Virus record (IMG/VR): IMGVR_UViG_2711768023_000006 | From: a virus | Taxonomy: Duplodnaviria; Heunggongvirae; Uroviricota; Caudoviricetes | Reading direction: 5' to 3' (one strand) | Length of the DNA stretch: 46,501 bases | Part shown: in pieces, positions 2,213 through 41,998 of the stretch | Layout of the letters: each line of letters opens with the position of its first letter | Numbering within the stretch: the stretch's first letter is position 1 | Notes under the pieces: model-generated | Databases searched by the model: none | Told to the model about the DNA's origin: nothing | The model's input: only the letters and a program-made list of their open reading frames with translations | Position numbers and translations under genes: made by a program

Positions 2213-2411
2213 GCTATTACCTTCTTCAGAGAGCCCCCAGCTACTTCCTGTGACTCTCGATGCAGCTGCCGAACAGCCAGAATCGCTCGCAGAGGACCCG
2301 AAAACCCTCAGTATCAGCTGTGAGGTAACGTTCCGGCACGGGACGCTCCGCTTCAATGGCAATGTCAGCGAAAAGCTCCTGACTCTGCTGATACAGGAAC
2401 TGAAGCGATGA
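2213..2411 (+). pseudogene. IS66 tnpA (orf1) C-terminal fragment
   Basis: Reading frame ...LSISCEVTFRHGTLRFNGNVSEKLLTLLIQELKR*; the apparent start MVVSAIAS lies inside the IS600 terminal repeat. Confidence 0.6.
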
Positions 2412-2718
2412 TCCCGTTACCTTCCGGGATCAAAATTTGGCTGGTTGCCGGTATCACCGATATGAGAAATGGCTTCAACGGCCTGGCTGCGAAAGTACAG
2501 ACGGCGCTGAAAGACGATCCCATGTCCGGCCATGTTTTCATTTTCCGGGGCCGCAGCGGCAGTCAGGTTAAACTGCTGTGGTCCACCAGTGACGGACTGT
2601 GCCTCCTGACCAAACGGCTGGAGCGTGGGCGCTTCGCCTGGCCGTCAGCCCGTGATGGCAAAGTGTTCCTTACACAGGCGCAGCTGGCGATGCTGCTGGA
2701 AGGTATCGACTGGCGACA
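2408..2718 (+). pseudogene. IS66 tnpB (orf2) N-terminal part, disrupted by prophage insertion
   Basis: MIPLPSGIKIWLVAGITDMRNGFNGLAAKVQ...LLEGIDWR; frame resumes at 41413-41453 (QPKRLLTSLTML*). Confidence 0.75.
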
Positions 2719-2900
2719 TATAACCAGGTGAATCATTTGATACCGACAAGGGGTTTAGTGAAAGGAGGTGAAATCACCTGTAAGATACTGAAATAAAACA
2801 GGTGATGGCTAGATGTGCGGATAAGGTCTATTTGATACCGATTGTGCAATAATTAGTCATTTATTATAAAATCGGCAACTCATTTGATACTGTGGTTTTA
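2719..2900 (+). promoter_or_regulatory. Prophage left end (attL) with three transposase-binding-like repeats
   Basis: TTTGATACCG at 2736-2745 and 2831-2840, variant TTTGATACTG at 2883-2892; same motif inverted three times at the right end. Confidence 0.6.
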
Positions 2901-2964
2901 GTCTTTTAAGGCGTTCCAAACAATGCGAAATACTCGATATAGTGCAAAATGCGGGCTAATGCTA

Positions 2965-3510
2965 TTAACCCGCTTTTGGTTCTACCGCGTTAGATTTGCG
3001 ACTTCTCTCAGTTTCTTCCAAAATCTCTCTGACGCGTTCGTCAGACATACCTTCAAGCTGTAATGCAGCTATTCTTTTCCTTCCTTCTAAGCGGATTAGA
3101 TCTTGATTTTCAGGCTCTAACAACCGAGCTAAGTACTTGGCTCCATTCAGAACCAAATTTTTCGATAGCTGCTCTAAGTCTTTTTCATCAAGTGCGCTGA
3201 TAATCGTCATAATTATCTTCTTGCTTTCATCTTGATTTTCCTTGATCTCACACCGATTCACTTGTGATGCATCACTGAATCCACATAGCCACTCAACACT
3301 TACTCCTTCGATAGACGCAATCTGAAGGGCGACACTTAAGGATGGCTCAGTGCCACGAGACAGATAATTGTTTAGTGTTGAAAATGAAAGCCCCCAATCT
3401 CTTGCTGCAGCTCTGACGCTGCGGGAGCCAATCAGCCTTTTCAGACGCTCAGCAATGCTTTCTTTTCTACCACCAGGAAAAGAAAGAGATGTTGTTGTTT
3501 GCTTGTTCAT
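2965..3510 (-). CDS. Putative prophage repressor (Mu c-like position, HTH protein)
   Basis: 181-aa HTH protein transcribed divergently from ner/A/B at the left end, as for Mu repressor. Confidence 0.6.
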   Translation of the reverse strand: MNKQTTTSLSFPGGRKESIAERLKRLIGSRSVRAAARDWGLSFSTLNNYLSRGTEPSLSVALQIASIEGVSVEWLCGFSDASQVNRCEIKENQDESKKIIMTIISALDEKDLEQLSKNLVLNGAKYLARLLEPENQDLIRLEGRKRIAALQLEGMSDERVREILEETERSRKSNAVEPKAG

Positions 3511-3695
3511 TTTCTTTTCTTCCTATCAATTTGAAATTATTAACTTTTAGTGTTGTCAGCAACCATTGATCCACAATAGACAAAAGAAAGATGTTTTTTT
3601 TGCTTTACATGAAGCAGAAGTGGATCAATACTTATATCAAACTTGATAACTAAGTTTAGTTATCAAATTTCGTAACTTTTTAGGATAGATGAATC
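3511..3695. promoter_or_regulatory. Divergent early promoter/operator region between repressor and ner
   Basis: AT-rich 185 bp with dyad TTGATAACTAAGTTTAGTTATCAA and inverted CCATTGATCCAC/GTGGATCAATA elements. Confidence 0.5.
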
Positions 3696-3926
3696 ATGGC
3701 GAGAAATGAAGTTAAGCCTGATTGGCATCCTCAAAGAATTTTGGGGGAAGTCAGAGCCAGAGAAGGAAGCATGAGGGCGCTGGCCCGTAAAGCTGGCGTG
3801 GGTCAGAACAATCTGTACAACGCGGTATACCGCCATGTTCCCAAGTATGAGGGGATTATCGCGGAATGCCTGGGGGTGCCGCCCGAGGAGATTTGGCCCA
3901 GCCGCTACATTCGTAAGGTCGCGTAA
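3696..3926 (+). CDS. ner: Ner-like DNA-binding regulator
   Basis: 76-aa protein with ...DWHPQRILGEVRAREGSMRALARKAGVG...EEIWPSRY, resembling Mu Ner/Nlp; first gene of early operon. Confidence 0.75.
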   Translation: MARNEVKPDWHPQRILGEVRAREGSMRALARKAGVGQNNLYNAVYRHVPKYEGIIAECLGVPPEEIWPSRYIRKVA

Positions 3927-3928
3927 TT

Positions 3929-6016
3929 ATGTTTGCTTCAGTTAAAGAACTGGTTGGATTACCGGGGATGCCGGGAACGGAGCAAGGCGTTCGCTATTCA
4001 ATCAGGAAGTATGCAACCAGCGAAACCAGCAGACGCCGCAAGAAAGGCGCTAAAGGTTTTGAATACAGCATTGACTGTTTACCTGAAGTGACACAGCAGG
4101 CATTACGCGAACGTTATGCCCTGCAACTGATGACGCAAAAAGCCGATGAATCACCGGCTCCGGTGGTGACAAAGGCCAGACGCTCGTCTGCCGTGGTTGA
4201 TGCGGTGGAGGCATATCGCGGATCACCACAACTGATGGTCGAACGCCTCAATGCCCTGACTGAAAACCAGCGCCAGGTGGCAGACGCACGCATTGCGATC
4301 GTCAGTGAGGTGCTGAAATTCACGCAACAACCCGGTTTCAGCTGCGCTAAAGCTATCCGGTTCCTCGTTAACAGCCTGGCACGATCACAACTGGACGAGC
4401 GCATTGTGGCAATGGTTGAGACGGCGAACGCCAAAAAGGGAAACAGCCGCGCGTTGAGTGAAATCACGCTGAAACGCTGGATTGCGGCCTTTAACAAGGC
4501 ACAGAACGCCGCTGAACGCCTGCTTTTACTGGCACCGGGTAAACGCCAGGAAATAAAAGCCGAAGATATTAACTGGCTGCCCGAATTTCTGGCGCAGTAT
4601 CGCCAGTCAAACGGCCGACCAATGACCGAGGCTTACGAGGATTTTGTTGCTGAATGGCAGCACCGGCACGCTGATGAGCCTTATATGCTCGATATCATGC
4701 CCTCTTATGACACCATTCGCCGCGCAATGAAGAAACTGCCGGAAGTGGTGAAACAAAAAGGCCGGGTAACTGGCAGTGAATACCGTCAGCTTGAGGGATT
4801 CACGCGCCGCGACTGGTCCAGAATGCCGGTGAATTATGTCTGGATTGGTGACGGTCACGGCATGAAGCTGAAATGCGCGCACCCGGTTCACGGGCGGCCA
4901 TTCGCACCGGAAGTGACCTTTGTTATCGACGGTGGCACGCGCTTTGTGGTGGGCTGGAGCCTTGACCTGGCTGAAAATGTTTTCGCCGTAGCCGGTGCCA
5001 TACAGCACGGTATTCGCCATCATGGCAAACCGTTTCTGTATTACTCGGATAATGGCTCCGGGGAAACCGCCGACGTCCTGGATAAGGAGATTGTGGGGAT
5101 ACTGCCACGACTGGGGATTAATCACCCGACAGGGATTGCCGGTAATCCGCAGGGACGGGGCATTATCGAACGGCTTAACCGCACATTACCGATGCGCATA
5201 GCCCGTAAATACCGCACCTATTTCGGGAAAGGAGCAGATCGCGAGACGTTACGTAAAACCAACCGCGATTTACGCTCGGCATTCAGTGCCCTGCAACAGG
5301 GCAAACGGCTGAACGCCCGGCAGCAGTCAGCGATGCGTGATTTACCGTCCTGGTCTGAACTGATTGATGCCATTCGTGACGGTGTTGAGTGGTACAACAA
5401 CCGGCCGCACGATGAATTACCCATGAAGCCGAACGGTAAACATTACAGCCCGGCGGAGTTCAGAAAAAAACGCCTGGCGGAAGAGGACACGGAAATTGAA
5501 TGGCTGTCCGATGTTGAACTGCGGGATATGTTCCGGCCGATGGTGGAGCGCCCTGTAAGACGCTGTGAAATACGCTGGCTGAATAATATTTACTACGCGC
5601 CCGAGCTGCGTGACGAGCATGGCCGTAAGGTACTTATCAGCTATGACATTCATGATGCCGAACGAATTACCGTGCGCCGCCCGGATGGCAGCGTGATTTG
5701 CGAGGCGGTATGGGACGGCAATAAACGCGAAGCCTTCCCTGTCAGCGCGGAATACTACAAACAGCAGCAGCGCCTTAAAGGCATGCGTAAACGCGCAGAG
5801 GAAAAAATCCGTGATGCCGAGGATGAGGTTGTCAACGTGCTGGAGCACAAGCCGCAGGAGCCCTGGCTGGAAAACATATACCGCCCTGTGGGTAATACGG
5901 TGACCGTTCAGCAACCGGTCGCTGACGATGAACCTGATGAAGAATACGAGCGTAATTTCCAGCGGGGATTGCAACTGCTCGAAGCGAAATTAAAAGAAAG
6001 TGATCCGCTGGCCTGA
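3929..6016 (+). CDS. A: Mu-type DDE transposase A
   Basis: 695-aa protein directly after ner, size and position of MuA. Confidence 0.85.
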   Translation: MFASVKELVGLPGMPGTEQGVRYSIRKYATSETSRRRKKGAKGFEYSIDCLPEVTQQALRERYALQLMTQKADESPAPVVTKARRSSAVVDAVEAYRGSPQLMVERLNALTENQRQVADARIAIVSEVLKFTQQPGFSCAKAIRFLVNSLARSQLDERIVAMVETANAKKGNSRALSEITLKRWIAAFNKAQNAAERLLLLAPGKRQEIKAEDINWLPEFLAQYRQSNGRPMTEAYEDFVAEWQHRHADEPYMLDIMPSYDTIRRAMKKLPEVVKQKGRVTGSEYRQLEGFTRRDWSRMPVNYVWIGDGHGMKLKCAHPVHGRPFAPEVTFVIDGGTRFVVGWSLDLAENVFAVAGAIQHGIRHHGKPFLYYSDNGSGETADVLDKEIVGILPRLGINHPTGIAGNPQGRGIIERLNRTLPMRIARKYRTYFGKGADRETLRKTNRDLRSAFSALQQGKRLNARQQSAMRDLPSWSELIDAIRDGVEWYNNRPHDELPMKPNGKHYSPAEFRKKRLAEEDTEIEWLSDVELRDMFRPMVERPVRRCEIRWLNNIYYAPELRDEHGRKVLISYDIHDAERITVRRPDGSVICEAVWDGNKREAFPVSAEYYKQQQRLKGMRKRAEEKIRDAEDEVVNVLEHKPQEPWLENIYRPVGNTVTVQQPVADDEPDEEYERNFQRGLQLLEAKLKESDPLA

Positions 6017-6098
6017 AATAAAAAAATAACCCGAGGGGTGACTCAGGTTATTTGAGGTTTCAGTCTCGGAGAATGCTGTCTCAAGCGAGGTGAATAAT

Positions 6099-7031
6099 AT
6101 GACCGATATTAACGATGTAATCAAGACCATTGATGAACTTATTGATGGCGGCGTACTGACGCAGTATGCCATCGCCAGAGAGGCGGGAATTTCCGACGGC
6201 ACATTATCGGCTTTCCGTAAGGGAAAATATAAAGGCGATAACGCTGCTGTGGCTGCTTCCCTGCGCTCCTGGTATGAGAACTGGAATAAACAAAGCGCAC
6301 TGCCGGAACCGCCGCAGTTTGTGGAAACTCAGACAGTCCAGGAGCTGCGCGCACTGTTTCAGGCGGTTCGCCTGATGGGCTGTATTAACGTTATTGTGGG
6401 CGTACCGGGTGTGGGTAAAACGGCCACTGCCCGTAATTACTGCCAGGAGCAACCAAACACCTGGATGATCACCCTGTCACCCGCGCACTCCAGCGTCACG
6501 GAGTGTCTGCTGGAGCTGGCCGATGCGCTGGGGATTGATTACACCCGCGCGAACAAAGGGGCATTATCCCGCGCCATCCGCCGTCGCCTGATGGGAACGC
6601 GTGGACTGGTGATTGTGGATGAGGCGGATCATCTTGGTATTGACGGTCTGGAGCAACTCCGGGCAATTCAGGACGCCACGGGGATCGGGATGGTGCTTAT
6701 TGGTAACCCGCGCGGATTGTTTAAAGGTGGACGCCGCGCCTTTGATGATTTATCGCGCCTGTTCAGCCGTCTTGCCCGTACAAAACAACTTCGCAAGGCC
6801 AAAAAGGCGGATGTGCTGGCCATTGCCATGGCGTGGGGGATCAGTGGTGAGGCCGAGCTGGCCGTCATGCAGGCTATCGCTGAAAAGCCGGGAGCGTTAC
6901 GCGTTCTGACACATACGCTTAACCAGGCGTGGCTCACCGCCAGCGGTGAAGGCGCGGCGCTGACAGAAAAACATATTAATGCGGCCTTTAAAGAGGTTTA
7001 TACCAACCCTGAATTACTCTCACAGGTGTGA
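6099..7031 (+). CDS. B: Transposition ATPase B (MuB-like AAA+)
   Basis: Walker A GVPGVGKT, Walker B VIVDEADHL; ATG at 6099 with RBS GCGAGG (the ORF-track start at 6090 is GTG). Confidence 0.85.
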   Translation: MTDINDVIKTIDELIDGGVLTQYAIAREAGISDGTLSAFRKGKYKGDNAAVAASLRSWYENWNKQSALPEPPQFVETQTVQELRALFQAVRLMGCINVIVGVPGVGKTATARNYCQEQPNTWMITLSPAHSSVTECLLELADALGIDYTRANKGALSRAIRRRLMGTRGLVIVDEADHLGIDGLEQLRAIQDATGIGMVLIGNPRGLFKGGRRAFDDLSRLFSRLARTKQLRKAKKADVLAIAMAWGISGEAELAVMQAIAEKPGALRVLTHTLNQAWLTASGEGAALTEKHINAAFKEVYTNPELLSQV

Positions 7032-7033
7032 TT

Positions 7034-7255
7034 ATGGCGGTATTTAATATTCCTGATATTTACGGACGCTTTTACCTGGTTAATTTCGATAACGTGAAGG
7101 TGATTTCACTGGCCGAAAATAAAGAATGTGGCGATTTACTTTTTGAATTTAATGACCGCACACGAATGGTGATATCTGCCGGACTTGATCGCGAAGGTGC
7201 GACAGAAGTTTACAGCGGAATATGCCGTTCTGTTGGTGCGAAACAAGTCAGCTAA
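7034..7255 (+). CDS. hypothetical early protein
   Basis: ORF after B; ATG at 7034 preceded by AGGTG. Confidence 0.4.
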   Translation: MAVFNIPDIYGRFYLVNFDNVKVISLAENKECGDLLFEFNDRTRMVISAGLDREGATEVYSGICRSVGAKQVS

Positions 7256-7267
7256 ATGAGGTGTTAT

Positions 7268-7522
7268 ATGAATATGCAATCCTGCGGTAACAAAATGAAT
7301 TTATTCGACTCCCTGAACAGCGCGCGCCGTCTGACCGAACTTGCCGGTGCGGTACTGGAACGCAGTAAGCGCTATCCGCAACGTTTTGCACTGAAAACCA
7401 CGCCGCCGGTAGGCAACGTGCAGGGAACCGGTGAAATTGAAATCACCATACAGACCAACGGCCTGCGCCGCCGTGTGAAGGCCACCCGCATCAGCGGCTG
7501 CACGGTTTACTGGGAGGTGTGA
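7268..7522 (+). CDS. hypothetical early protein
   Basis: ORF in early operon, RBS GAGGTG; start ambiguous (7256/7268/7274). Confidence 0.4.
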   Translation: MNMQSCGNKMNLFDSLNSARRLTELAGAVLERSKRYPQRFALKTTPPVGNVQGTGEIEITIQTNGLRRRVKATRISGCTVYWEV

Positions 7523-7523
7523 G

Positions 7524-7805
7524 GTGAAAAAAAATCTCATTGCATGGGCGTGGTCGAGTGGTCTTATTGAGTTTGGTTACGTCCTGCCGGAAGGTGCATT
7601 GCCGATAGTTGCCGGAAAGCCTGCCACGGTACGGCATGTGATTGAGGTTATGGCGCGTCATGGACGTGATGAACAGGAGCAGTTACTGGTTCCGGGGATA
7701 CCGGAAGCGGTGACGGAGGAAGAAGCCTTTAATGCCATGATTCGGTTCTGCCGTGAGGTTAGACGCCGGGTCAGTTATCCAAACAGAACGAGGACCAGAG
7801 GATGA
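7524..7805 (+). CDS. hypothetical early protein
   Basis: 93-aa ORF, GTG start preceded by GGGAGG, tightly coupled to neighbours. Confidence 0.4.
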   Translation: MKKNLIAWAWSSGLIEFGYVLPEGALPIVAGKPATVRHVIEVMARHGRDEQEQLLVPGIPEAVTEEEAFNAMIRFCREVRRRVSYPNRTRTRG

Positions 7806-8074
7806 GTAAAGTCGTACGCATTATTTTCGAATACAAGGAAGATGTTATCTGCAAAAACTCTGATGGCAGCACGCACAGAGGGGTAAGTCTGGATATACGT
7901 TCAACCGGAATAAAGAAGAAAGATAATGGACCCGCCATGATTTTTGGGGTGGTTATGCTGGCAGAAAGCAGAAACTTCGCAGAGTTTGTGGCAATGAAAG
8001 CCAGTGCATTCATGAAAGACAGAGGCATGGCTTCCGGGGTTATTAACGGTAATGAATTTAATCAACAGGGGTAA
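7802..8074 (+). CDS. hypothetical early protein (paralogue A)
   Basis: MSKVVRIIFEYKEDV...; N-terminus paralogous to next gene. Confidence 0.45.
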   Translation: MSKVVRIIFEYKEDVICKNSDGSTHRGVSLDIRSTGIKKKDNGPAMIFGVVMLAESRNFAEFVAMKASAFMKDRGMASGVINGNEFNQQG

Positions 8075-8078
8075 TTCC

Positions 8079-8372
8079 ATGAGCAAAGTACGCGTTATTT
8101 TTGAATTTAATCATGTTTCGCATGACGAAAAGTTGGCAGGCAATGACTGTGTTGAAGTGCATGAAAAGATTGGAGTGGATGTGAAAACAGAACGTGATAC
8201 GGATAACAGGCCGACGTCACTCTGTGACGTTTATGCAAGTATTCTCCAGTATCACAGTCCTGCAATTATTCAGTTTCTCTCAGCGGAATTTCAGGCATCT
8301 GCACAGTCTTTTGGAGCGGATGCCATCATTAAACGCCACCGCGTGCATAAAGCATCAGGCACACTGCAATAA
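8079..8372 (+). CDS. hypothetical early protein (paralogue B)
   Basis: MSKVRVIFEFNHV...; ATG at 8079 with RBS AGGGG. Confidence 0.45.
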   Translation: MSKVRVIFEFNHVSHDEKLAGNDCVEVHEKIGVDVKTERDTDNRPTSLCDVYASILQYHSPAIIQFLSAEFQASAQSFGADAIIKRHRVHKASGTLQ

Positions 8373-8383
8373 GGAAAAACAAA

Positions 8384-8914
8384 ATGGCTAAACGCGTTAC
8401 AAAATTAAAGGCCGCAGCCGAGGCGGCACCGCAGACCCGGGAAGAAGTCAGCCGTGATATCCGCACCCTGGGAGATATTCAGCGAGAGGCGCTGCGCCTG
8501 GAAACGGCGATGAATGACGAAGTGGCAGAAATCACCGCCCGTTATACGCCGCAGATTGAAAATCTTAAAAAGCAAATCAAAGTGCTTTTTAAAGGGATTC
8601 AGGACTGGTGCAAAACCAACCGTGATGAGCTGACGAACGGCGGCAAAACCAAAACAGCCAATCTGACCACCGGAACGGTGTCATGGCGGCTGGGAACGCC
8701 ATCATGCAGCGTCAGCCGTGATGTGGAAGGTGTGATTGAAATGCTGCGCCGTATGGGGCTTGAGCGTTTCATCCGCACGAAAGAGGAAGTGAACAAGGAA
8801 GCCGTCCTGGCGGAGCCGGATGCTGTGAAAGGCATTGCCGGTATCAAGGTGAATAAAGGCGCTGAAAGTTTTTATGTCGAGCCTTTTGAACAGGACGCCG
8901 GACTGAATAAATAA
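8384..8914 (+). CDS. gam: Gam-like host-nuclease inhibitor (DNA end-binding)
   Basis: 176 aa; ...IRTLGDIQREALRLETAMNDEVAEITARY...CKTNRDELTNGGKTKTANLTTGTVSWR...FIRTKEEVNKEA closely resembles Mu Gam. Confidence 0.85.
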   Translation: MAKRVTKLKAAAEAAPQTREEVSRDIRTLGDIQREALRLETAMNDEVAEITARYTPQIENLKKQIKVLFKGIQDWCKTNRDELTNGGKTKTANLTTGTVSWRLGTPSCSVSRDVEGVIEMLRRMGLERFIRTKEEVNKEAVLAEPDAVKGIAGIKVNKGAESFYVEPFEQDAGLNK

Positions 8915-9059
8915 CACCGCATTAATCAATTAAATATCACTTCATTTTAATTATGGCGCTCGCGTCAGGGGACTGCTTGCGCCTGAAAACAGAAAATAAG
9001 GGTTAAGAAATATGAAATACGTTTATATCGTCATTAATAATGTGGTGGGGAAATAAATC

Positions 9060-9593
9060 ATGATTGATGCAAAAGTGCTTGAAGGGGTTAAAAACTGGCT
9101 GTGTATTTATGGCCGCCTGACCTGCGGTGTACTGGCTGAAAAAATGAATATGCCGCCATCCTCCATGGTTTATTTTCTGCGTGATGCGGTTGATGCAGGC
9201 GTGCTGACGGAATGTAACGGTTTTTATGATATTCCGCGTCCCCGCCCGGTGCAGCCGGTTCGTCGCAAATGCAGCCAGGAATCTGCGGCTGATGATGTTC
9301 AGTGGTGCGGCTTCAGAAAATCCCTGCCATGGATTGAGGGGCATGATATTCCGTCGATGGCGTGGGAATTTGCTCAGGGCGTTCTGACCTGTGAAACCGT
9401 TTATGTGGTGGCTGAAGTTGATGAGCAGGCCATGAAAGAAGGCGTGCCCCAGTTTGTGATGGCGTATATCGACATACGCCTGGGCGTCATTATCTGCGGT
9501 TTAAGCGGCTGGAATATCACTGAACATGTTCTGCGCTACCTGATTGTTGACCGGACAGCAGCGCCTGCCGGGATATCTGCGGAGGTGGCGTAA
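9060..9593 (+). CDS. hypothetical protein
   Basis: 177-aa ORF in semi-essential early region. Confidence 0.4.
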   Translation: MIDAKVLEGVKNWLCIYGRLTCGVLAEKMNMPPSSMVYFLRDAVDAGVLTECNGFYDIPRPRPVQPVRRKCSQESAADDVQWCGFRKSLPWIEGHDIPSMAWEFAQGVLTCETVYVVAEVDEQAMKEGVPQFVMAYIDIRLGVIICGLSGWNITEHVLRYLIVDRTAAPAGISAEVA

Positions 9594-35302: not shown

Positions 35303-35310
35303 TGATATTC

Positions 35311-35336
35311 AGAAGGCCTTCCGGCCTTCTTTATTA
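35311..35336. terminator. Bidirectional terminator hairpin between S and convergent U'
   Basis: AGAAGGCC-TTCC-GGCCTTCT followed by TTATT; overlaps U' stop. Confidence 0.6.
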
Positions 35337-35855
35337 CTGTGGCTGCTCAGGCCATTTAATGGCGTTAAATTCAGCTTCTGTTTTAATGGCGGGTAGTTCC
35401 ATTTTCTTCACCTGACTGATGTATGCCATCCATTGGGTAAGTGCTGCTCTGTCTTCATCGCTGATGGTGCCCAGTTGTAGCTCCGTTCTCCAGTCATTAA
35501 TTTTTTCATATGCCTGATTAAGATATGACTGGCGCATTGCTTCCAGTTTTCTTGCGTAGTTAACCGGAATACGGGAGATTATGCCATTATCAAACTTCCA
35601 GTTTCCTGAAATATCCGTGCCTTCAGGGAGTTCATCGACCTCAACCACAGAAAACCCCGCAGGATACAGCGCCGAGGCGTCCTGTGATATTGAGCAGATA
35701 ACGCCGCTGTCAGGTGTTATGCAAAGTTTATATTTTTTGGTGAATAATGGCAGGGATTCGTAGAAATCCTTACCATCTTCACTCTGGAAATACTGAACAT
35801 TATTACCATATGGCATATTTTCAGGATAATAACGGGTTATATTTTTTAGTTCCAT
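35334..35855 (-). CDS. Tail fibre assembly protein (U'/Tfa) in the currently silent orientation
   Basis: 173-aa protein on minus strand inside invertible segment, RBS GGAGG, directly downstream of alternative fibre tip. Confidence 0.7.
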   Translation of the reverse strand: MELKNITRYYPENMPYGNNVQYFQSEDGKDFYESLPLFTKKYKLCITPDSGVICSISQDASALYPAGFSVVEVDELPEGTDISGNWKFDNGIISRIPVNYARKLEAMRQSYLNQAYEKINDWRTELQLGTISDEDRAALTQWMAYISQVKKMELPAIKTEAEFNAIKWPEQPQ

Positions 35856-35906
35856 AAAATCCTCCTGGAAATAAATCTGTTTTAAAATATATTATTTACT
35901 GACTAT

Positions 35907-36268
35907 TTATAACTGAGATACCGTAATCCATGTACCTCCGACTAATTTTTGCAGGGGTCTGAATGCTATAAAATCGTTTGAAGCATCAACTTTACTGTCA
36001 ATCTGCAGGCCTGCCATAACATTACCGTACGCAGAGTAATATGCCCCACCGTACATTACCTGCCTGTTCTCTGCTCCCAGCCTGATATCCTGGATATATC
36101 GGGAATCCGCATCCTGCTGTGTTATACCAGAAGTGATGTTTATGTCCTGCGTCCCGTCAAAGGGAACCCCATTAATATTTCTTGGGGTGGCGAGTCTATT
36201 CGCGGCAACGGCGGTGCCGTCCGATGGCAGAGCATTCGCCGCCCTGTTTACCGTTTCCCGTAAACCGA
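35907..36268 (-). other. Silent alternative tail-fibre C-terminal cassette (Sv')
   Basis: Minus-strand frame ...[60 protein letters not shown]...GGTWITVSQL*; first ~45 codons near-identical to S codons 178-222, no start codon, in-frame stop just upstream of repeat. Confidence 0.65.
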
Positions 36269-36280
36269 GGTTTTCAGGAA
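36255..36280. other. Right invertase crossover site (gix/hix-like, 26 bp)
   Basis: TTCCCGTAAACCGAGGTTTTCAGGAA, very close to recalled Mu gix sequence; central GA is reverse complement of left-site core. Confidence 0.65.
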
Positions 36281-36345
36281 AGCCAGGATTAACTCTGTTT
36301 TATTCCTCATGCGACAATTCCGGCTTTTTATAATAAGGAAATCGT

Positions 36346-36918
36346 ATGCTGATTGGGTATATCAGGGTGTCAACAAATGACCAGAATACGGCGCTACAAA
36401 GAAATGCGCTGGAATGTGCAGGATGTGAGCTGTTTTTCGAAGACAGAATAAGCGGTAAGACAAGGGAGCGTCCCGGACTTAAACGCGCATTAAAGCGACT
36501 CCGGCCAGGGGATACCCTGCTGGTCTGGAAACTGGATCGCCTTGGACGCAGTATGCAGCACCTTGTCCTTTTAACAGAAGAACTCCGGCAACGCGGCGTT
36601 AACTTCCGCAGCATTACGGACAATATTGATACATCCACTCCCATGGGACGTTTCTTTTTCCATATAATGGGCGCGCTGGCGGAAATGGAGCGGGAACTCA
36701 TTATTGAACGTACACGCGCGGGTCTTGCTGCTGCCCGTGCTCAGGGGCGTCATGGCGGCAGACCTCAGAAACTGACAGAGAAAGAGCGGGAGCAAATCGC
36801 CCGTTTGCTGGCTAATGGCGAGTCCCGTAAACAAATCGCACTGATATTTGATATTGGCCTTTCCACCCTTTATCGTTATTTTCCTGCCTCACCAGCTCCG
36901 TCACCAAAAGTACCGTGA
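36346..36918 (+). CDS. gin: Serine recombinase, DNA invertase Gin/Hin/Pin family
   Basis: MLIGYIRVSTNDQNTALQRNALECAGCE...GDTLLVWKLDRLGRSMQHL...MGRFFFHIMGALAEMERELIIERT, near-identical motifs to Gin. Confidence 0.95.
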   Translation: MLIGYIRVSTNDQNTALQRNALECAGCELFFEDRISGKTRERPGLKRALKRLRPGDTLLVWKLDRLGRSMQHLVLLTEELRQRGVNFRSITDNIDTSTPMGRFFFHIMGALAEMERELIIERTRAGLAAARAQGRHGGRPQKLTEKEREQIARLLANGESRKQIALIFDIGLSTLYRYFPASPAPSPKVP

Positions 36919-37003: not shown

Positions 37004-39058
37004 ATGTCAGACTCCAAGTGGAAAATGCTCTCCGCCATGCCCGGAGAGTTTTCAGTCAAGGTTGCCGGTGGCACGGTGGCATTTATTGAAAGCCCTTTCC
37101 GCCCTTCGGGTAATAAAGGGGGGATCACCTTCGCAGACTGCGTGATCCGCTTCAGCACGAAAGAGCCATTATGGGTAATGCCGGTATCCGGTAATCCCAG
37201 TGCAGAAATCACCAGTTCAGGCGTGACTGGCATCATTCCAATCACATCTGACGTGGCCGGAACGCTCACGCCCTCCGACTGGAATGCACCGGATAACGCC
37301 GGGCCTTCCGGTAGCACGAATGGCAGCAGTTCAGAGCCGGAATATTACTTTGTTGTCATTCTCGCGGGTCAGTCAAATGGCATGGCCTACGGCGAGGGGC
37401 TGCCGTTACCGGATTCGTTTGACCGCCCGGACCCACGCATTAAGCAACTGGCACGCCGCAGTACGGTAACGCCCAACGGTACGTCGTGTACATACAACGA
37501 CATCATTCCGGCAGACCACTGCCTGCATGATGTTCAGGATATGAGCGGGATAAACCACCCGAAAGCTGATCTGGCAAAAGGCCAGTACGGGACTGTCGGT
37601 CAGGGGTTGCATATTGCCAAAAAACTGCTTCCCTATATCCCACAGAATGCCGGGATACTTCTGGTGCCCTGTTGTCGTGGCGGGTCAGCATTCACCACTG
37701 GAGCCGACGGCTCATTCAGTGAGGCCAGCGGTGCTTCCGCTGATTCTTCACGCTGGGGGGCCGGTAAACCTCTGTATCAGGACCTGGTAAGCCGCACCAA
37801 AGTCGCGCTGGCGAAAAACCCGAAAAACAAACTTCTGGCTGTGGTCTGGATGCAGGGAGAGGCAGACCTTGCCTCAGGAAGCCAGCAGCATAATAGTTTA
37901 TTCACGGCCATGGTTCAGCAGTTCAGAACTGACCTGGCTCCGCTTGCTGCGCAGTGCGTGAGTGGAAATGCCACCACGGTGCCGTGGATTTGCGGTGATA
38001 CCACGTATTACTGGAAAAACGCTGGCACCGATAAATATGAGGCAGTATACGGTGGCTACAAAGGCAAGGAAGCACAGAAAATTTTCTTTGTACCGTTCCT
38101 GACGGATGAGAATGGACAGAGCACGCCAACGAATGCTCCGGCGGAAGACCCGGATATTGTGGCTGTCGGGTATTACGGTGCAGCATCCCGAACCCAGGGC
38201 AGTTTTGTTTCGACACAGCGTGACAGCCATTTCAGCTCATGGGCACGCAGGGGCGTCATTTCAGACCGTCTGGCCTCAGCTATTATGCTCCATGCAGGGC
38301 GCACGGCTGAACTGATGCGTGGGCAGACCGTGACACCACCGGATGAGAAGCCGTCACCTGATACACCATCAAAACCGTCCACGCCACCCGCAGACACCAC
38401 GACGATGAGTACGCTATTTGCTTACCGGGCATCTGAGTCTGAAGGACGGTTGACACCACAGGGTTGGGCTGCCGGAGGTGGCAAGGCTCAAATCGTGGAT
38501 GATGCCGGAGCCAGCGGGGGTAAGGCAATGAAACTGACCAAGGAAACAGGAAGAGCCCCCTGGTACCTTGAGCATGATGCTGGTAATGGTGCGGACCTGC
38601 TGGGTAAAGGTGGTCTTGTCAGTTGTCGTTTTAAACTCGATGGCGCGCTTACGGCTAATCAGTACGCACTGGCGCTGTACTGGCCGGTTTCTGCCCTGCC
38701 GCAAGGGGTTACTCTGGAAGGAAATGCCGGTCATAACCTGCTGGCATCGTTCTACGTACAGAGCGATGCCACAGACCTTAACGTGATGTATCACAAAGGA
38801 AACACGGCGCAGAACACGAAGCTGGGGTCATTCGGCGCATTTAATAACGAATGGCATACGCTGGGCTTCCGTTTTGCCGGTAACAACAGTATTGAGGTGA
38901 CGCCGGTCATTGATGGTAAGGACGGGACACCATTCATGCTGTCGCAGTCTCCGGTCGGCACGTTTACGGCAGACAAGTTGCGCGTGACCGATATCACTAA
39001 AAATGCGACTTACCCGGTACTGATTGACAGTATCGTGGTGGAAGTGAATAACGCGTAA
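37004..39058 (+). CDS. SGNH/sialate-O-acetylesterase-like hydrolase with Pro/Thr linker and C-terminal beta-rich domain
   Basis: 684 aa; GQSNGMAYGEG block with catalytic Ser, downstream RDSH (Asp/His) block; linker PPDEKPSPDTPSKPSTPPADTTT; no signal peptide evident. Confidence 0.6.
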   Translation: MSDSKWKMLSAMPGEFSVKVAGGTVAFIESPFRPSGNKGGITFADCVIRFSTKEPLWVMPVSGNPSAEITSSGVTGIIPITSDVAGTLTPSDWNAPDNAGPSGSTNGSSSEPEYYFVVILAGQSNGMAYGEGLPLPDSFDRPDPRIKQLARRSTVTPNGTSCTYNDIIPADHCLHDVQDMSGINHPKADLAKGQYGTVGQGLHIAKKLLPYIPQNAGILLVPCCRGGSAFTTGADGSFSEASGASADSSRWGAGKPLYQDLVSRTKVALAKNPKNKLLAVVWMQGEADLASGSQQHNSLFTAMVQQFRTDLAPLAAQCVSGNATTVPWICGDTTYYWKNAGTDKYEAVYGGYKGKEAQKIFFVPFLTDENGQSTPTNAPAEDPDIVAVGYYGAASRTQGSFVSTQRDSHFSSWARRGVISDRLASAIMLHAGRTAELMRGQTVTPPDEKPSPDTPSKPSTPPADTTTMSTLFAYRASESEGRLTPQGWAAGGGKAQIVDDAGASGGKAMKLTKETGRAPWYLEHDAGNGADLLGKGGLVSCRFKLDGALTANQYALALYWPVSALPQGVTLEGNAGHNLLASFYVQSDATDLNVMYHKGNTAQNTKLGSFGAFNNEWHTLGFRFAGNNSIEVTPVIDGKDGTPFMLSQSPVGTFTADKLRVTDITKNATYPVLIDSIVVEVNNA

Positions 39059-39202
39059 GCAGGATAAAAAAATGCCGCCGGTAAGGGAAAACAAGAAACC
39101 GGCGGCAAAAAGATCGTTATATCCAAAGCAAAAAATGCAGTGCACCTTTTTACCTAACAGATATTACCGGTGTCAACACCATGTCAATAATTGGGAGGGA
39201 TA

Positions 39203-39385
39203 ATGACATTTTTACAGCTTATTTTATTGTATTTCTGCACGGCAGTATGTGCGTTATATCTGGTGAGTGGTGGTTATAAGGCCATCAGAAATTATGTTCG
39301 CCGCAAAATTGAGGACGCAGCAGCTGAAAAACTCAGTAAAACAGCGCAGGTAACTCCGCTCCCAAAAGACCCGACCCAGCCCTGA
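39203..39385 (+). CDS. Small membrane protein
   Basis: MTFLQLILLYFCTAVCALYLVSGG TM segment; RBS GGGAGGG before ATG 39203. Confidence 0.45.
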   Translation: MTFLQLILLYFCTAVCALYLVSGGYKAIRNYVRRKIEDAAAEKLSKTAQVTPLPKDPTQP

Positions 39386-39420
39386 TTGCAGGGCTTTATT
39401 CCCGCATAAGGAGGATATAC

Positions 39421-39675
39421 ATGCCAGAAATTAAAGGCACCGTCACTGAAGACCTGGTAAAACAGGCACTGTATTCCGGTGAAGTAAATAAGTTGCTGAA
39501 AGCGCAGGTCCGCAAGGATTTTGAGGCACAAATCGACACTTACGTTGATGAAGTGCTGGCAAAACTTATTGGGCCAGCAGTTGCGGCCAGTGATGCTGAT
39601 AATGAGCCGAAAACCGACGCGCAGCCAGAGCAACCAGACCCGGCTCAGCCCGGAACTGACAGTACCATGATGTAA
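39421..39675 (+). CDS. hypothetical acidic protein
   Basis: 84 aa with strong RBS AAGGAGG. Confidence 0.5.
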   Translation: MPEIKGTVTEDLVKQALYSGEVNKLLKAQVRKDFEAQIDTYVDEVLAKLIGPAVAASDADNEPKTDAQPEQPDPAQPGTDSTMM

Positions 39676-39842
39676 CAATACAAACCGGTGGTGTCCTCTG
39701 CCGGTTTGACACTAATGAAAACATCTTTGCCGCTATCCAGCCATATGTAATCGCTGGATAGTATTTCGTATTCAGAAATATAGCTGCTTATGGAGCAGTC
39801 AATCCTGCTTCCCCATCCGGGCAGGCAAATGAACCGGTATCA

Positions 39843-40136
39843 TTAGTCCGATTCACGCTTTTGTAGAATCGTTCCCAGAATGCTATACAGCTCATTAGCC
39901 TGTTGCTCCATCATTGAGACGGAGGCTATACGGTGCAAAGTGATTTCAGGAGGTGGCACACCTCCATCTTCTTGCTGTGGAGGAAAAACATAAGATTTAA
40001 TAAAAAAGTTGAAGCATATGAACTCTCCCGCACTCGAACTGTATTTGCAGGCATCTGAATAATCGGAAAAATAATCATTATAGATTTCCGCATTTTCAAT
40101 CATTTTTCGATTTCTCGTCGTTACATGATTGTCCAT
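39843..40136 (-). CDS. hypothetical protein, divergent from com-mom
   Basis: 97-aa minus-strand ORF; AT-rich intergenic region shared with com-mom. Confidence 0.4.
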   Translation of the reverse strand: MDNHVTTRNRKMIENAEIYNDYFSDYSDACKYSSSAGEFICFNFFIKSYVFPPQQEDGGVPPPEITLHRIASVSMMEQQANELYSILGTILQKRESD

Positions 40137-40254
40137 AGCAGCCTCTTACGCTGGCAATTAACCAATTGACTTCTATAAATTAGTTGATTTGTTTGCTTTG
40201 CGGTATTCAAATGTACAATCATTCAGCACTTATGCGTTACAGCACCGTTTAAAA

Positions 40255-40392
40255 TTAGTGATCAAACTCATAAATTTTCGCTAATGACATTTCGTGTTAT
40301 TTGTTGTATCAATTAAATAAATCAAATCGATCGTTTTTGTCGATCGATTGAGTGATAAAGATATCAACAACAAAGCAGGAGGTTATGCGGCC
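40255..40392 (+). promoter_or_regulatory. com-mom upstream regulatory region with GATC cluster
   Basis: GATC at 40260-40263, 40329-40332 and 40342-40345 upstream of com start. Confidence 0.45.
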
Positions 40393-40593
40393 ATGTATCG
40401 AAACATACGGTGCCGACATTGTAACAAGCTACTGGCACGAGCCAGCTTCAGTTATCTGGAAGTTAAATGTCCGCGCTGTAAAACCCTCAATCAAATCACA
40501 TCTCAGAGCGCCACAGAGCACCCCACATACACAAGGAAATCCTGTCGTGGGGAACAGAAAGCAAGTTACATCCCGTATCATCAGCACGCCTGA
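40393..40593 (+). CDS. com: Com-like zinc-finger translational activator of mom
   Basis: [17 protein letters not shown]...VKCPRCKT resembles Mu Com (MKSIRCKNCNKLL...RCPRCK); RBS AGGAGG; overlaps mom. Confidence 0.7.
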
Positions 40594-41284
40594 ACTTATT
40601 CACTATAACGACAATATCGTCGGTTATGGCTCCCGTGAGTTACGGGTTGAGACAATAAGTTGCTGGCTGGCCCGGCTGGTCGTCGTCAATAAACATTACA
40701 GCCATCGTTTCGTAAATAATTCCTACCTTCATCTGGGCATATTTTCAGAACGGGAGCTGGTTGGCGTAATGCAATGGGGTTATGCCCTTAATCCAAACAA
40801 TGGTGCACGCGTCGTAACTGGCACGCAGAACCGCGAATATATGGAGCTTAACCGGTTATGGCTGCATGACTGTATGCCGAGAAACTCCGAATCAAGGGCA
40901 ATCAGTTACGCGCTCAAACTAATCAGACAACTTTATCCGCAGGTGCAGTGGGTTCAGTCGTTTGCAGATGAGCGTTGTGGCTGTCTTGGTGTCGTGTACC
41001 AGGCAAGCAATTTTGATTATGTAGGCAGTCATGAAACAACATTCTATGAACTTGATGGCGAGTGGTATCACGAGATTTGCAAGAATGCAATCAAACGAGG
41101 AGGACAGCGAGGTGAACATCTGCGGGCTAATATCGACAGAGCCAGTGTTCATAAATTCCGTCAGTTTCGTTACATCCGGTTTCTGGACAAGAGAGCCAGA
41201 AAACGCCTTAACACAAAGCTATTCAAAGTCCAGCCTTACCCAAAACCACAAACAGTTAAAACTGGTTTGAAAGAGAGTGAATGA
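40547..41284 (+). CDS. mom: Mom-like DNA modification enzyme (adenine modification); start uncertain
   Basis: ...[43 protein letters not shown]...[11 protein letters not shown]...[23 protein letters not shown] matches Mu Mom; GTG at 40547 with RBS AAGGA; ORF extends upstream to 40352. Confidence 0.8.
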
Positions 41285-41324
41285 ACGCTTAAAAACTCAT
41301 TCTAAAACTCAAAAGAAAAGCGCC

Positions 41325-41412
41325 GATTTAGTATCAAATAAGTTGCGTATCGGCGTTTTTCAGCGGTATCAAATGAAATGCAAATCGGTATCAAAAAAAT
41401 CGCCGCGCTATA
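41325..41412 (+). promoter_or_regulatory. Prophage right end (attR) with three inverted transposase-binding-like repeats
   Basis: CGGTATCAAA at 41364-41373 and 41386-41395, variant AGTATCAAA at 41330-41338; terminal ...GCGCTATA mirrors left terminal TATAACC. Confidence 0.6.
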
Positions 41413-41998
41413 GACAGCCTAAGCGGCTGCTGACCTCCCTGACCATGCTGTAAATCTCTTTATCCTGGTTGTCACAGAATAAGCCCGGTAAAATACGGGC
41501 TTATGAACGACATCTCTTCTGACGACATCTTCCTGCTGAAACAGCGCCTTGCCGAACGTCAGTTGAAAACGAAACCGCTGCTGAAATCCCTGGAAAGCTG
41601 GCTGCGTGAAAAGATGAAAACCCTGTCGCGACACTCAGAACTGGCGAAAGCGTTCGCATACGCCCTGAACCAGTGGCCGGCGCTGACGTACTATGCAGAT
41701 GATGGCTGGGCTGAGGCGGACAATAACATCGCTGAAAATGCGTTGCGGATGGTCAGTCTGGGCCGCAAAAACTACCTGTTCTTCGGTTCGGATCATGGAG
41801 GAGAGCGGGGAGCGCTGCTGTACAGCCTGATCGGGACGTGCAAACTGAACGGAGTGGAGCCAGAAAGCTACCTCCGCTATGTCCTTGACGTCATAGCCGA
41901 CTGGCCGATAAACCGGGTCGGCGAACTGCTCCCCTGGCGCGTAGCACTGCCGACTGAATAACACATTCCCGTCAATACGGTTCTTGCTGCACGCTTAC
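41413..41998 (+). mobile_element. IS66-family element, right portion (tnpB 3' end, internally deleted tnpC, right terminus)
   Basis: QPKRLLTSLTML* at 41415-41453; tnpC remnant; ends ...CACGCTTAC, complementary to the IS66-family GTAAGCG terminal motif. Confidence 0.7.
41503..41961 (+). pseudogene. IS66 tnpC, internally deleted (N-terminal leader fused to C-terminal ~130 aa)
   Basis: ...MKTLSRHSELAKAFAYALNQW...DNNIAENALRMVSLGRKNYLFFGSDHGGERGALLYSLIGTCKLNGVEPESYLRYVL...LLPW matches transposase C-terminus only; 152 aa versus ~520 expected. Confidence 0.75.

Follow-up and report, generated by a model that had tools for sequence, protein, structure and literature searches.

The window examined here, a stretch of 46,501 nucleotides of DNA, raises the question of whether a transposable prophage lies as one complete unit within the tnpB gene of an IS66-family element, and of how it arrived there and whether it could still move. 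The preliminary description proposed that a complete Mu-like prophage, flanked by GACA, had gone into tnpB as a precise insertion. Comparison with empty-site genomes of the same species bears this out, as both the tnpB frame and the whole locus are restored exactly. The prophage (2719–41412, plus strand; 38,694 bp as assembled) is colinear with Mu by tblastn but, judged by its sequence, belongs to the Sp18 lineage, known from E. coli O157 and other STEC, and is not Mu proper.

Insertion site and target-site duplication

The prophage boundaries can be read directly from the sequence. The left junction lies at 2718/2719, where ...GACTGGCGACA meets TATAACCAGG, and the right junction at 41412/41413, where ...GCCGCGCTATA meets GACAGCCTAAGCGG. 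A 4-bp target-site duplication, GACA, is found at 2715–2718 and again at 41413–41416, with a single copy at empty sites. Joining 2213–2718 to 41417 onward yields a sequence that aligns with an intact IS66-family element (E. coli O104:H4 plasmid, L001 positions 3001–3647) over 647 bp at 99.4% identity with no gaps, confirming that the joined flanks restore an uninterrupted tnpB. The restored TnpB has 115 aa and the C-terminus ...LLEGIDWRQPKRLLTSLTML, whereas the disrupted gene continues into the phage end as far as a stop at 2731 (107 aa, ...DWRHITR). Likewise, the window minus 2719–41412 and one GACA aligns gap-free with an intact IS66 tnpA-tnpB-tnpC. Ten assemblies, including S. sonnei 53G (HE616528.1), contain the same locus without the prophage and with a single GACA (GGTATCGACTGGCGACAGCCTAAGCGG); the prophage-free window aligns with them without gaps over up to 4,001 bp at 99.7–99.9% identity. 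The same occupied left junction is seen in the closed chromosome CP176614.1 (99.98% over 8.9 kb), and the index of the assembly collection lists the junction-specific truncated TnpB (107 aa) in 110 blocks.

A nested structure of this kind could also arise if junctions of different prophage or IS66 copies had been joined across the N gap during assembly. A 108-N scaffold gap does separate the two junctions, single-N joins at 1158 and 43858 mark the record as stitched from contigs, some genomes harbor such phages at up to four places, and two drafts (L030 and L031) have another left continuation. However, the left and right junctions interrupt tnpB at one and the same nucleotide, the 4-bp duplication matches and has the family-typical length, removal of the insert recreates the empty locus exactly, and both sides of the gap are colinear with one prophage, that of E. 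coli HH35. Draft contigs of 40–48 kb with the junction-specific TnpB are also as long as a prophage with a flank on either side should be. An assembly artefact is thus very improbable. In the two drafts, the left IS66 arm runs on into an uninterrupted tnpA, as the result either of a path through a second IS66 copy or of genuine recombination among copies.

The preliminary description also noted that a fifth duplicated base would be C on the left but A on the right. The mismatch is real, as is GACA at both junctions, but it does not represent an imperfection. Mu makes 5-bp duplications (PMC8705779), and the near-match at the fifth base could indicate a Mu-like 5-bp duplication in which one copy has mutated (CGACA against AGACA), making the element a member of Mu proper. 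Nevertheless, the duplications are exactly 4 bp in all nine paired insertions of the Sp18-type lineage examined (GACA, TACG, CGAT, CCCC, CATC, TTAG, CACC, AGAG and GACG). The fifth base disagrees on both sides in eight of the nine, and the right copy is in every case preceded by the A that ends the element itself. At the empty site the lone GACA has a C before it, and the depositors of LC727895 and LC727881 likewise annotated 4-bp duplications. Nucleotide similarity to Mu, D108 and SfMu amounts to about 3–4% of the query, in short stretches at about 72%. The nine pairs, the empty site and the low similarity to Mu refute the 5-bp reading, to which we attach practically no credence. A 4-bp duplication, and not an imperfect 5-bp one, is the rule for the Sp18-type lineage.

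The IS66-family target

The interrupted element belongs to the IS66 family (tnpA-tnpB-tnpC), as its flanks are 99.4–99.6% identical to an intact family copy, present in 3,547 of 5,426 E. coli genomes, and code for TnpB_IS66 and DDE_Tnp_IS66 domains. Unlike that copy, the one in the window is dead, with IS600 in tnpA, a deletion in tnpC, the tip of the left inverted repeat missing and the prophage in tnpB. The left arm (2213–2718, plus strand; 99.6% identity to L001 3001–3506) contains the 3' portion of tnpA, which extends to 2411, and the opening 311 nt of tnpB (2408–2718; Pfam TnpB_IS66, E 1e-37). The right arm (41417–41998, plus strand; Pfam DDE_Tnp_IS66 and DDE_Tnp_IS66_C) comprises the final 37 nt of tnpB (ending at 41453) and a 152-residue tnpC remnant (41503–41961), and finishes at 41998 with the right inverted repeat, ...GCACGCTTAC. 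The tnpC deletion removes 1,080 bp in frame (360 codons) between two copies of AACAGCGCCTnGCCGAAC.

The 3' 1,054 bp of IS600 (IS3 family; 1159–2212, plus strand; Pfam rve/HTH_21 on 1351–2169) adjoin the left arm, IS66 homology starting at 2213. The element had been described as degraded, internally deleted in tnpC and truncated on the left by IS600. The first two points stand, but the third does not: in closed relatives IS600 separates the first 268 bp of IS66 from the rest, and there is a GCT duplication of 3 bp (L017). IS600 is therefore a simple insertion into tnpA that does not truncate the element, and the apparent truncation results from the window's assembly, in which the contig starts inside IS600 at the single-N join at 1158. 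The empty-site genomes already show IS600 in its place as well as the deletion in tnpC, so the IS66 element was dead before the phage arrived.

Completeness and gene content of the prophage

The prophage is 99.3–99.9% identical to that of HH35, which sits at another site, in a diguanylate-cyclase gene, and no indels separate the two apart from an intergenic one of 1 bp and an in-frame one of 6 bp. Among the 55 HH35 prophage genes, 54 are full length in the window; the exception is gemA (gp16 family; 11708–12281), which is broken only by the assembly gap, a 108-N run (12033–12140) standing for about 47 bp. Its N-terminal 108 residues match HH35 exactly, and so do its C-terminal 46 residues and the stop. 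The genes are arranged colinearly with Mu, and the domain content of A and B is as expected. The earlier claims of a complete Mu-like prophage with Mu-type genes intact apart from the gemA gap thus hold, and on its gene content the prophage is apparently functional.

Genes are on the plus strand unless noted. The immunity repressor (2965–3510, minus strand; 181 aa; phrog_3037, E 4.5e-60) contains an XRE-type helix-turn-helix in its N-terminal part (Pfam HTH_3, weak), and its C-terminal part matches the PHROG repressor family phrog_7148 over residues 94–178; searches of Pfam, PHROG and PDB found no LexA-type cleavage domain in it. This XRE-type repressor region is present at 80% or greater coverage in 12 of 5,426 E. 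coli genomes. It is followed by a ner-like early regulator (3696–3926; 45% identity to Mu Ner; Pfam HTH_35), transposase A (3929–6016; 695 aa; Pfam HTH_Tnp_Mu_1 and Mu-transpos_C; phrog_310, E 1e-211) and a MuB-like AAA+ transposition activator (6099–7031; 48% identity to MuB; Pfam Phage-MuB_C and AAA_22). Transposase A shows 94% identity to Sp18 A and 22.6% to MuA, and MuA structures were not retrieved with the transposase A core; local motifs suggest D308, D374 and E414 as candidate catalytic residues. The small ORFs of the early/semi-essential region (7034–11417) include kil (7268–7522), gam (8384–8914), gp11 and gp12 homologues, and a DNA-binding protein annotated as SANT/Myb-like (10112–10663; D5-like regulator in PHROG). 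Downstream of gemA lies a Mor/C-family transcription activator (12352–12774; 28% identity to Mu Mor, 40% to Mu C), an assignment that also draws on the PGAP annotation of HH35. No second member of this family was detected in the prophage, whereas Mu has two, Mor and C.

The lysis block (12846–14249) codes for an endolysin (12846–13346), an Rz-like spanin (13411–13809), a small overlapping ORF (13793–14011) and a TraR/DksA zinc-finger protein (14022–14249). The packaging and head genes (14230–23088; 33–72% identity to Mu proteins) are all intact and comprise gp25, gp26, the small (14827–15408) and large (15664–17331) terminases, portal (17331–18920), F (18904–20235), G (20357–20830), protease/scaffold I (21008–22141) and major head protein T (22141–23088). 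Equally intact are the head-tail connector, contractile tail and baseplate genes (23132–34421; 34–58% identity), with sheath (24749–26251), tube (26260–26625), tape measure (27244–29301), N, P, V, gp46, gp47 and gp48. A tail-fibre/host-range switch (34421–36918) contains S (34421–35302), one U-like chaperone (35334–35855, minus strand), an alternative S C-terminus (about 35916–36300, minus strand), inverted repeats at 34943–35091 and 36127–36275, and a Gin invertase (36346–36918) 74% identical to Mu Gin. Between gin and com lies cargo absent from Mu (37004–40103), assigned with Pfam: a 684-residue SASA-type carbohydrate esterase with DUF6645 (37004–39058), DUF1378 (39203–39385), DUF826 (39421–39675) and a small ORF (39846–40103, minus strand). 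The cargo genes are also found in the O157 Sp18-type copy and other relatives. A DNA-modification module (40393–41284) follows, consisting of com (40393–40593) and mom (40547–41284; Pfam Mom, E 2e-77), whose product is 75% identical to Mu Mom.

Prophage ends

The left end (2719–2890, plus strand), whose end sequence is kept in every relative, contains three TTTGATAC(C/T) repeats in the same orientation (2736–2743, 2831–2838 and 2883–2890), putative transposase sites arranged like Mu L1...L2-L3. The right end (41331–41412, plus strand) contains three GTATCAAA repeats (41331–41338, 41366–41373 and 41388–41395) arranged like Mu R3-R2-R1. Ten further loci share its last 34 bases exactly, and six fetched prophages its last 40.

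Both termini of the window prophage are TA-3'. Mu transposase requires CA-3' ends for full activity. The prophage might accordingly be a defective relic, complete in gene content but immobilized by TA, in place of the canonical CA, at both termini, or by a lesion hidden in the gap; the left end is TG in most E. coli relatives, and about 47 bp of gemA are concealed. However, the right end reads ...CTATA in 17 of 17 relatives examined (the six fetched prophages, LC727895 and the ten further loci), so TA-3' is the normal right end. Moreover, copies with a TA left end and an identical A protein are present at eight or more different sites, a distribution that requires TA/TA elements to have transposed recently; the seven different left junctions with the identical A all begin TATAACC. 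All genes outside the gap are intact. A defective relic is rather unlikely.

Proposed history and activity

The best account, which we hold with high confidence, is that an Sp18-lineage transposable phage integrated in tnpB of an already inactive IS66-family element in a Shigella sonnei-type strain. The phage would have infected such a strain, or transposed within it, and met a target already disabled by IS600, by the loss of 360 tnpC codons and by the missing repeat tip. We infer that integration was a DDE transposition, in which A would bind the three TTTGATAC repeats at each end and join the phage DNA 3' ends to target phosphates with a 4-bp stagger, gap repair then giving the duplicated GACA, and B would serve as AAA+ target-capture partner. 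In this neutral location, and with every needed gene, the prophage probably retains the capacity for transpositional replication and DNA packaging. Induction by mitomycin C is unlikely, and the test would be a poor one, because Sp18 is reported as intact and efficiently packaged yet not induced by mitomycin C (PMC2669165), and because the repressor shows no LexA-type cleavage domain.

Relationship to other transposable phages

Sp18 of E. coli O157:H7 strain Sakai and the Sp18-like STEC phages (such as the inserts annotated in Stx phages LC727895 and LC727881) share the gene order of the window prophage, about 91–93% nucleotide identity over 54–95% of each segment, an identical right end and end repeats, 4-bp duplications, and the esterase, DUF1378 and DUF826 genes between gin and com-mom. 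They differ in the immunity region, some early genes, a TG left terminus versus TA, and the host, which for the window is a Shigella sonnei-type chromosome. Members of the group occupy many insertion sites, often within other mobile elements (six of ten in STEC CC119; PMC10132054), and related left ends occur at many loci in 233 of 5,426 complete E. coli genomes.

Mu, together with D108 and SfMu (genus Muvirus), has in common with the prophage c, ner, A, B, gam, gemA, Mor/C, the lysis, head and tail genes, the S/U invertible segment, gin, com and mom, with late proteins at 34–72% identity, as well as the end layout, in which the left end has an isolated repeat and two others and the right end a cluster of three. 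It is set apart by its distant A, 5-bp duplications, CA-3' ends, a different repressor, a second Mor/C-family activator, and the absence of the roughly 3.4 kb of cargo between gin and com. Outside the Sp18 group, the best full-length A matches are VW-6B (47% over 92% of the protein), MP22-like phages (about 30% over 89%) and RcapMu (30% over 60%). The Pseudomonas phages with similar transposases (MP22, MP29 and JBD-type) presumably represent the D3112 group; these phages, VW-6B and RcapMu are siphoviruses whose virion modules are unrelated and whose hosts differ.

The setting of the prophage is ordinary apart from the lineage's 4-bp duplication, versus 5 bp in Mu, and its TA end, versus CA; the combination of TA-3' ends with 4-bp duplications in the Sp18-type lineage is mildly novel. 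TG...CA has been described as a conserved feature of every Mu- and B3-like phage known until then (PMC8705779). The Leptospira 'TA-TA' transposable prophages have 6-bp duplications, a B3/Tn552-type transposase, spirochaete hosts and no sequence relationship to the window prophage, but share with it the non-canonical TA dinucleotides at their ends (PMC8705779).

Precise insertion into an IS66 tnpB gene

The prophage occupies positions 2719–41412 and interrupts the tnpB gene of an IS66-family element. At the left junction (2718/2719) the flank ends in ...GGTATCGACTGGCGACA and the prophage begins with TATAACCAGGTGAATCATTTGATACC..., while at the right junction (41412/41413) the prophage ends in ...GGTATCAAAAAAATCGCCGCGCTATA and the flank resumes with GACAGCCTAAGCGG...; at the matching place, the uninterrupted tnpB of L001, a locus with an intact IS66-family element on an E. 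coli O104:H4 plasmid, reads GGTATCGACTGGCGACAGCCCAAGCGG. Window 2213–2718 joined to 41417 onward aligns without gaps to L001 3001–3647 (647 bp, 99.4% identity), and the rejoined flanks encode a 115-residue TnpB whose C-terminal end, immediately before the stop codon, is ...LLEGIDWRQPKRLLTSLTML. Segment 2719–41412 has therefore inserted precisely, duplicating GACA. Alignment to the intact element and to empty sites thus bears out the preliminary description, which had proposed a precise insertion with one restored tnpB frame and GACA on both sides.

Direct proof of the insertion comes from ten assemblies with an empty site, found by an exact-protein look-up with the 152-residue TnpC remnant; one is HE616528.1 (S. 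sonnei 53G). All share the order IS110-family gene, 5’ part of IS66, IS600, 3’ part of IS66 tnpA, intact 115-residue TnpB, 152-residue TnpC remnant, truncated tail-fibre gene, DUF4376 gene and ipaH. None of the ten carries a prophage in tnpB, and GACA is single-copy in every one. With the prophage and one GACA removed, the window aligns gap-free over 4,001 bp at 99.8–99.9% identity to eight of them; for the other two the alignment is shorter or slightly gapped. Since the IS600 insertion and the tnpC deletion are both present in these empty-site genomes, both are older than the arrival of the phage. The occupied left junction is also found in the closed chromosome CP176614.1, which is 99.98% identical to window 1159–10016. 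The index of the assembly collection lists the junction-specific truncated TnpB (107 residues, ending ...DWRHITR) in 110 blocks; most of these contigs measure 20–50 kb, as a prophage with a flank on either side should. Chimeric assembly of the nested structure and a shift of the element borders were both considered and rejected.

Two draft assemblies with the same tnpB-phage junction differ on the left, where the IS66 arm runs into an uninterrupted tnpA without IS600 (L030, positions 1–360; L031, positions 1–265); beyond this tnpA, the L030 sequence was read as an IS1 end. Either the assembler followed a different IS66 copy here, or IS66 copies have recombined.

The host element is recognizable as IS66 by its TnpB_IS66 and DDE_Tnp_IS66 Pfam domains, its tnpA-tnpB-tnpC organization and its gap-free match to the intact copy, and its right inverted repeat ends at 41998. 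It does not have the intact genes and both inverted repeats of a mobile copy: IS600 lies in tnpA, tnpB is split by the prophage, 360 codons are deleted from tnpC, and the left end is incomplete, with homology beginning 9 bp inside the inverted repeat. The internal tnpC deletion noted in the preliminary description can be defined against L001, where the alignment breaks off at 3647 and resumes at 4710, with an 18-bp repeat, AACAGCGCCTnGCCGAAC, at the break and 1,080 bp lost in frame. The statement in that description that IS600 had truncated IS66 on the left requires correction. In CP176614.1 and the empty-site genomes, 268 bp of IS66 (L001 2736–3003), including the tnpA start, lie upstream of IS600, and IS66 resumes downstream at L001 3001, which amounts to a 3-bp GCT duplication. 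Thus IS600 is a simple insertion in tnpA.

IS66 itself is inserted in a prophage tail-fibre gene; compared with the Pfam profile, the encoded protein is missing positions 1–33. A gene for an IpaH-type E3 ligase (Pfam) lies at 44477–46192 on the minus strand. The window contains single-N joins at 1158 and 43858, both within IS600 copies, and a 108-N run at 12033–12140. Positions 1–1157 form a separate contig. Its sequence was read as an IS2-like end together with an IS600 5’ part and a fragment of IS1, and it differs from what precedes IS600 in closed relatives; this mismatch and the N joins in IS600 indicate that the outer pieces were scaffolded rather than assembled. Relative to the empty-site genomes, the window also has an IS600 copy at 43847–44416, between the DUF4376 gene and ipaH, where approximately 11 bp (GGGAAACGGAT) are replaced; the 5’ part of this copy is lost at the N join (outer piece 43858–44405).

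Relationship to Mu and to Sp18-like prophages

At ~38.6 kb, the prophage has the genome size (~36–40 kb) and the early, lysis, head and tail gene order of Mu-like transposable phages, and of 54 Mu proteins used as tblastn queries, 40 gave colinear matches. The matches span the early genes (ner, A, B, gam, gp11–14, gemA and one Mor/C-family gene), lysis and packaging genes (endolysin, gp25–27, large terminase at 72% and portal at 58%), head and tail genes (F, G, I, T at 67%, sheath, tube, tape measure, N, P, V and gp46–48) and the right-hand region (S, U, Gin at 74%, Com, and Mom at 75%). At the nucleotide level, however, the megablast match to Mu, D108 and SfMu is only ~600 bp at ~72% identity, or 3–4% of an 18-kb query, and the other two prophage segments gave no match to any of the three. 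The prophage has neither the genome-wide Mu nucleotide similarity nor the 5-bp duplication that characterize Muvirus.

The prophage is 91–93% identical in nucleotide sequence to Mu-like inserts within the STEC Stx phages LC727895 and LC727881. The study behind these records reported that such Mu-like phages resemble Sp18 of O157 Sakai, and that six of ten lay inside other mobile elements (PMC10132054). Membership in this Sp18-like lineage is supported by the high identity, an identical right end and end repeats, and a transposase (A) 94% identical to that of the Sp18-type prophage in agaF of O157:H7. Among 5,426 complete E. coli genomes, 233 have a related left end, and it occupies many loci. 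The nearest relative, a prophage of E. coli HH35, is inserted in a diguanylate-cyclase gene and shows 99.9% identity in its left 9.3 kb and 99.3% in the other 29.3 kb. The prophage is well delimited but an ordinary member of a known lineage, and the same insertion is present in many public assemblies.

In one closed genome, CM128582.1 (loci L016 and L041), a left end with an identical A and a right end with an identical Mom lie ~3.4 Mb apart, which implies several copies or rearrangement between copies.

Prophage ends and target duplication

Three TTTGATAC(C/T) repeats are present at each prophage end, all oriented alike with respect to the tip, at distances from it of 17, 112 and 164 bp on the left and 17, 39 and 74 bp on the right. 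This arrangement mirrors the L1...L2-L3 and R1-R2-R3 layout of the Mu ends.

The target duplication was compared across the nine insertions for which both junctions are available. In all nine the duplication is exactly 4 bp long and directly adjoins the prophage, which begins T(G/A)TAACC... on the left and finishes ...GCGCTATA on the right: GACA in the window, TACG in HH35, CGAT in O157:H7 Wll001 (in agaF), CCCC in strain 102651 (in motA), CATC in LC727881, TTAG in FORC_029, CACC in strain 03_3503, AGAG in LC727895 and GACG in S1-CAM-01-A. The preliminary description had allowed for a fifth duplicated base, C on the left and A on the right in the window. A 5-bp duplication with one mutated copy is rejected, since the fifth base disagrees on both sides in eight of the nine insertions; in the ninth (GACG) it matches on one side, as chance predicts. 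The depositors of LC727895 and LC727881 likewise annotated 4-bp repeats. These nine pairs, further single junctions elsewhere and the empty site of the window together demonstrate insertion at many unrelated sites.

The terminal nucleotides also depart from the 5’-TG...CA-3’ pattern. All 17 relatives examined finish in ...CTATA on the right. The left end is TG in five fetched prophages and TA in the window, HH35, FORC_029, S1-CAM-01-A and other loci with an identical A, at least eight sites in all, such that the window copy is 5’-TA...TA-3’ and its relatives are TG...TA or TA...TA. In a 2021 survey, duplications of 5 bp for Mu and 6 bp for B3 were listed, TG...CA ends were stated to be conserved in every Mu- and B3-like phage known until then, and TA-TA ends were newly seen in Leptospira (PMC8705779). 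Literature searches found no published 4-bp duplications or TA ends for Sp18-like phages, and a Pseudomonas integration-site paper does not mention duplications; the sole record found of a 4-bp repeat is the annotation in the two database entries.

Two further phages were noted. S. sonnei 53G, an empty-site strain, carries another Sp18-like prophage ~1.2 kb from the tnpB site, in the adjoining tail-fibre gene (position 4125 of its locus L021, approximately window 42626), with a TG left end and a repressor different from that of the window. Because its left flank ends in ...GCGCTG, the target duplication is probably GCTG. The isolated Yersinia pestis phage vB_YpM_5 (MT374853.1; L011 670–860) has an A gene of 81% nucleotide identity, and its ends carry the same GGTATCAAA / TTTGATAC repeats as the window prophage. 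The record is circularized through ~100 bp of apparently host-derived DNA, from which single sequence the exact termini cannot be fixed; its ends may be TA...TA if the repeat spacing is conserved.

Transposase lineage and proposed mechanism

Transposase A contains the Pfam domains HTH_Tnp_Mu_1 (E 1e-8) and Mu-transpos_C (E 2e-17), with weak matches to the rve core, and is assigned to the phrog_310 transposases (E 1e-211). It adjoins a MuB-like AAA+ activator, B, with Phage-MuB_C (E 8e-25) and AAA_22 domains and 48% identity to MuB, the arrangement typical of transposable phages. A itself is only 22.6% identical to MuA over its full length. In a PDB search, only the N-terminal domain of A retrieves MuA (1tns), and its core weakly retrieves retroviral integrase cores, not the MuA core. 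In isolated phages, A is best matched over its full length by the transposases of Pseudomonas phage VW-6B (47%) and of Pseudomonas phages MP22, MP29 and similar phages (~30% over 89% of the protein); the RcapMu transposase matches at 30% over 60%. Because the best matches to A lie outside Mu, the Sp18-like lineage joins Mu-like B, virion, gin and mom modules to a different branch of the same transposase superfamily, and a different branch would fit a different stagger.

The borders of the prophage, its duplication and empty site, its intact genes and the recent mobility of its near-identical copies can be read from the DNA; the steps of its insertion may be modelled on established Mu biology. 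A would bind the end repeats and build a transpososome, to which B would deliver target DNA. The phage 3’-OH ends, each a terminal A preceded by T, would then be joined by A to target phosphates 4 bp apart, and filling of the gaps by host repair or replication would leave GACA on both sides.

It is an even call whether Sp18-like phages constitute a distinct, undescribed subtype of Mu-like transposition, combining a Mu-type virion, B, gin and mom with an A nearer to Pseudomonas phage transposases, TA-3’ in place of CA-3’ ends and a stagger of 4 bp instead of 5 or 6 bp. The underlying sequence facts are solid, and TA-3’ is the putative cleavage point. The family-wide 4-bp duplication with TA-3’ ends is the sole feature that might surprise a specialist. 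The genome itself calls for routine annotation, the prophage being a further copy of a known type at a neutral site. A common Mu relative of E. coli and Shigella breaks two usual recognition rules, TG...CA ends and duplications of 5–6 bp, and prophage finders and end-calling scripts built on those rules will misplace Sp18-like borders. A also offers a natural variant for studying what determines target stagger and end specificity in Mu-type transpososomes.

The locus is a clean example of nested elements, with IS66 in a prophage tail-fibre gene and both IS600 and the phage in IS66. Empty-site genomes from the same species reveal in which order the last events took place, and the insertion could therefore be used as an S. 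sonnei lineage marker. It lies in a dead IS inside a prophage remnant, a selectively neutral location, which probably explains both its survival and the frequent finding of such phages in other mobile elements.

Gene content and regulation

Judged by its sequence, the prophage is complete. Relative to HH35 it has only two indels, a single base between genes (7527) and an in-frame difference of six bases (23423–23428), and the 108 Ns stand for 47 bp of HH35. All 55 HH35 coding sequences are full length in the window and free of stop codons, except gemA, whose 108 codons before the gap, and 46 codons and stop after it, are identical to HH35. The earlier view that the genes are intact apart from the gap in gemA is thereby upheld.

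The repressor (2965–3510, minus strand) is a 181-residue protein that looks chimeric, with an XRE-type helix-turn-helix N-terminus and a C-terminal half matching the PHROG repressor family phrog_7148, which is likewise matched by the N-terminus of A. Only 12 of the 5,426 E. coli genomes contain this rare immunity region at 80% coverage or more. No LexA-type cleavage domain was detected in the repressor, and a PDB search gave only a marginal match to the CI helix-turn-helix. Sp18 is reported to be intact and efficiently packaged but not mitomycin C-inducible (PMC2669165). Given the latter and a repressor of this kind, SOS induction of the prophage would not be expected. A single Mor/C-family activator gene lies between gemA and the endolysin gene (12352–12774), where Mu has both Mor and C, and the regulatory cascade may be one tier shorter than that of Mu.

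Neither ARAGORN nor Rfam at gathering thresholds identified RNA genes in the window. A cloverleaf-like fold with a T-arm-like hairpin (GCGGG-UUCGACC-CCCGC) lies in the 120-bp gap between F and G (20237–20316, minus strand); its stability relative to shuffled sequence is not significant (z = -1.6), and PGAP labels the equivalent F-G region ‘tRNA-OTHER’ in HH35, 102651 and FORC_029.

The right-hand region contains an invertible tail-fibre segment (34421–36918) with ~150-bp inverted repeats at 34943–35091 and 36127–36275 and a single gene for a U-like chaperone, which lies on the minus strand. The present orientation, common to all fetched relatives, yields a 293-residue S protein without a co-oriented chaperone; inversion would join S to an alternative C-terminus and place U downstream. 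Between gin and com (37004–39675) lies cargo encoding a 684-residue SASA-type carbohydrate esterase with DUF6645, and then DUF1378 and DUF826. Those fetched Sp18-like relatives that are annotated share this cargo, which resembles the nanS-p esterase module that adjoins the lysis genes of Stx phages.
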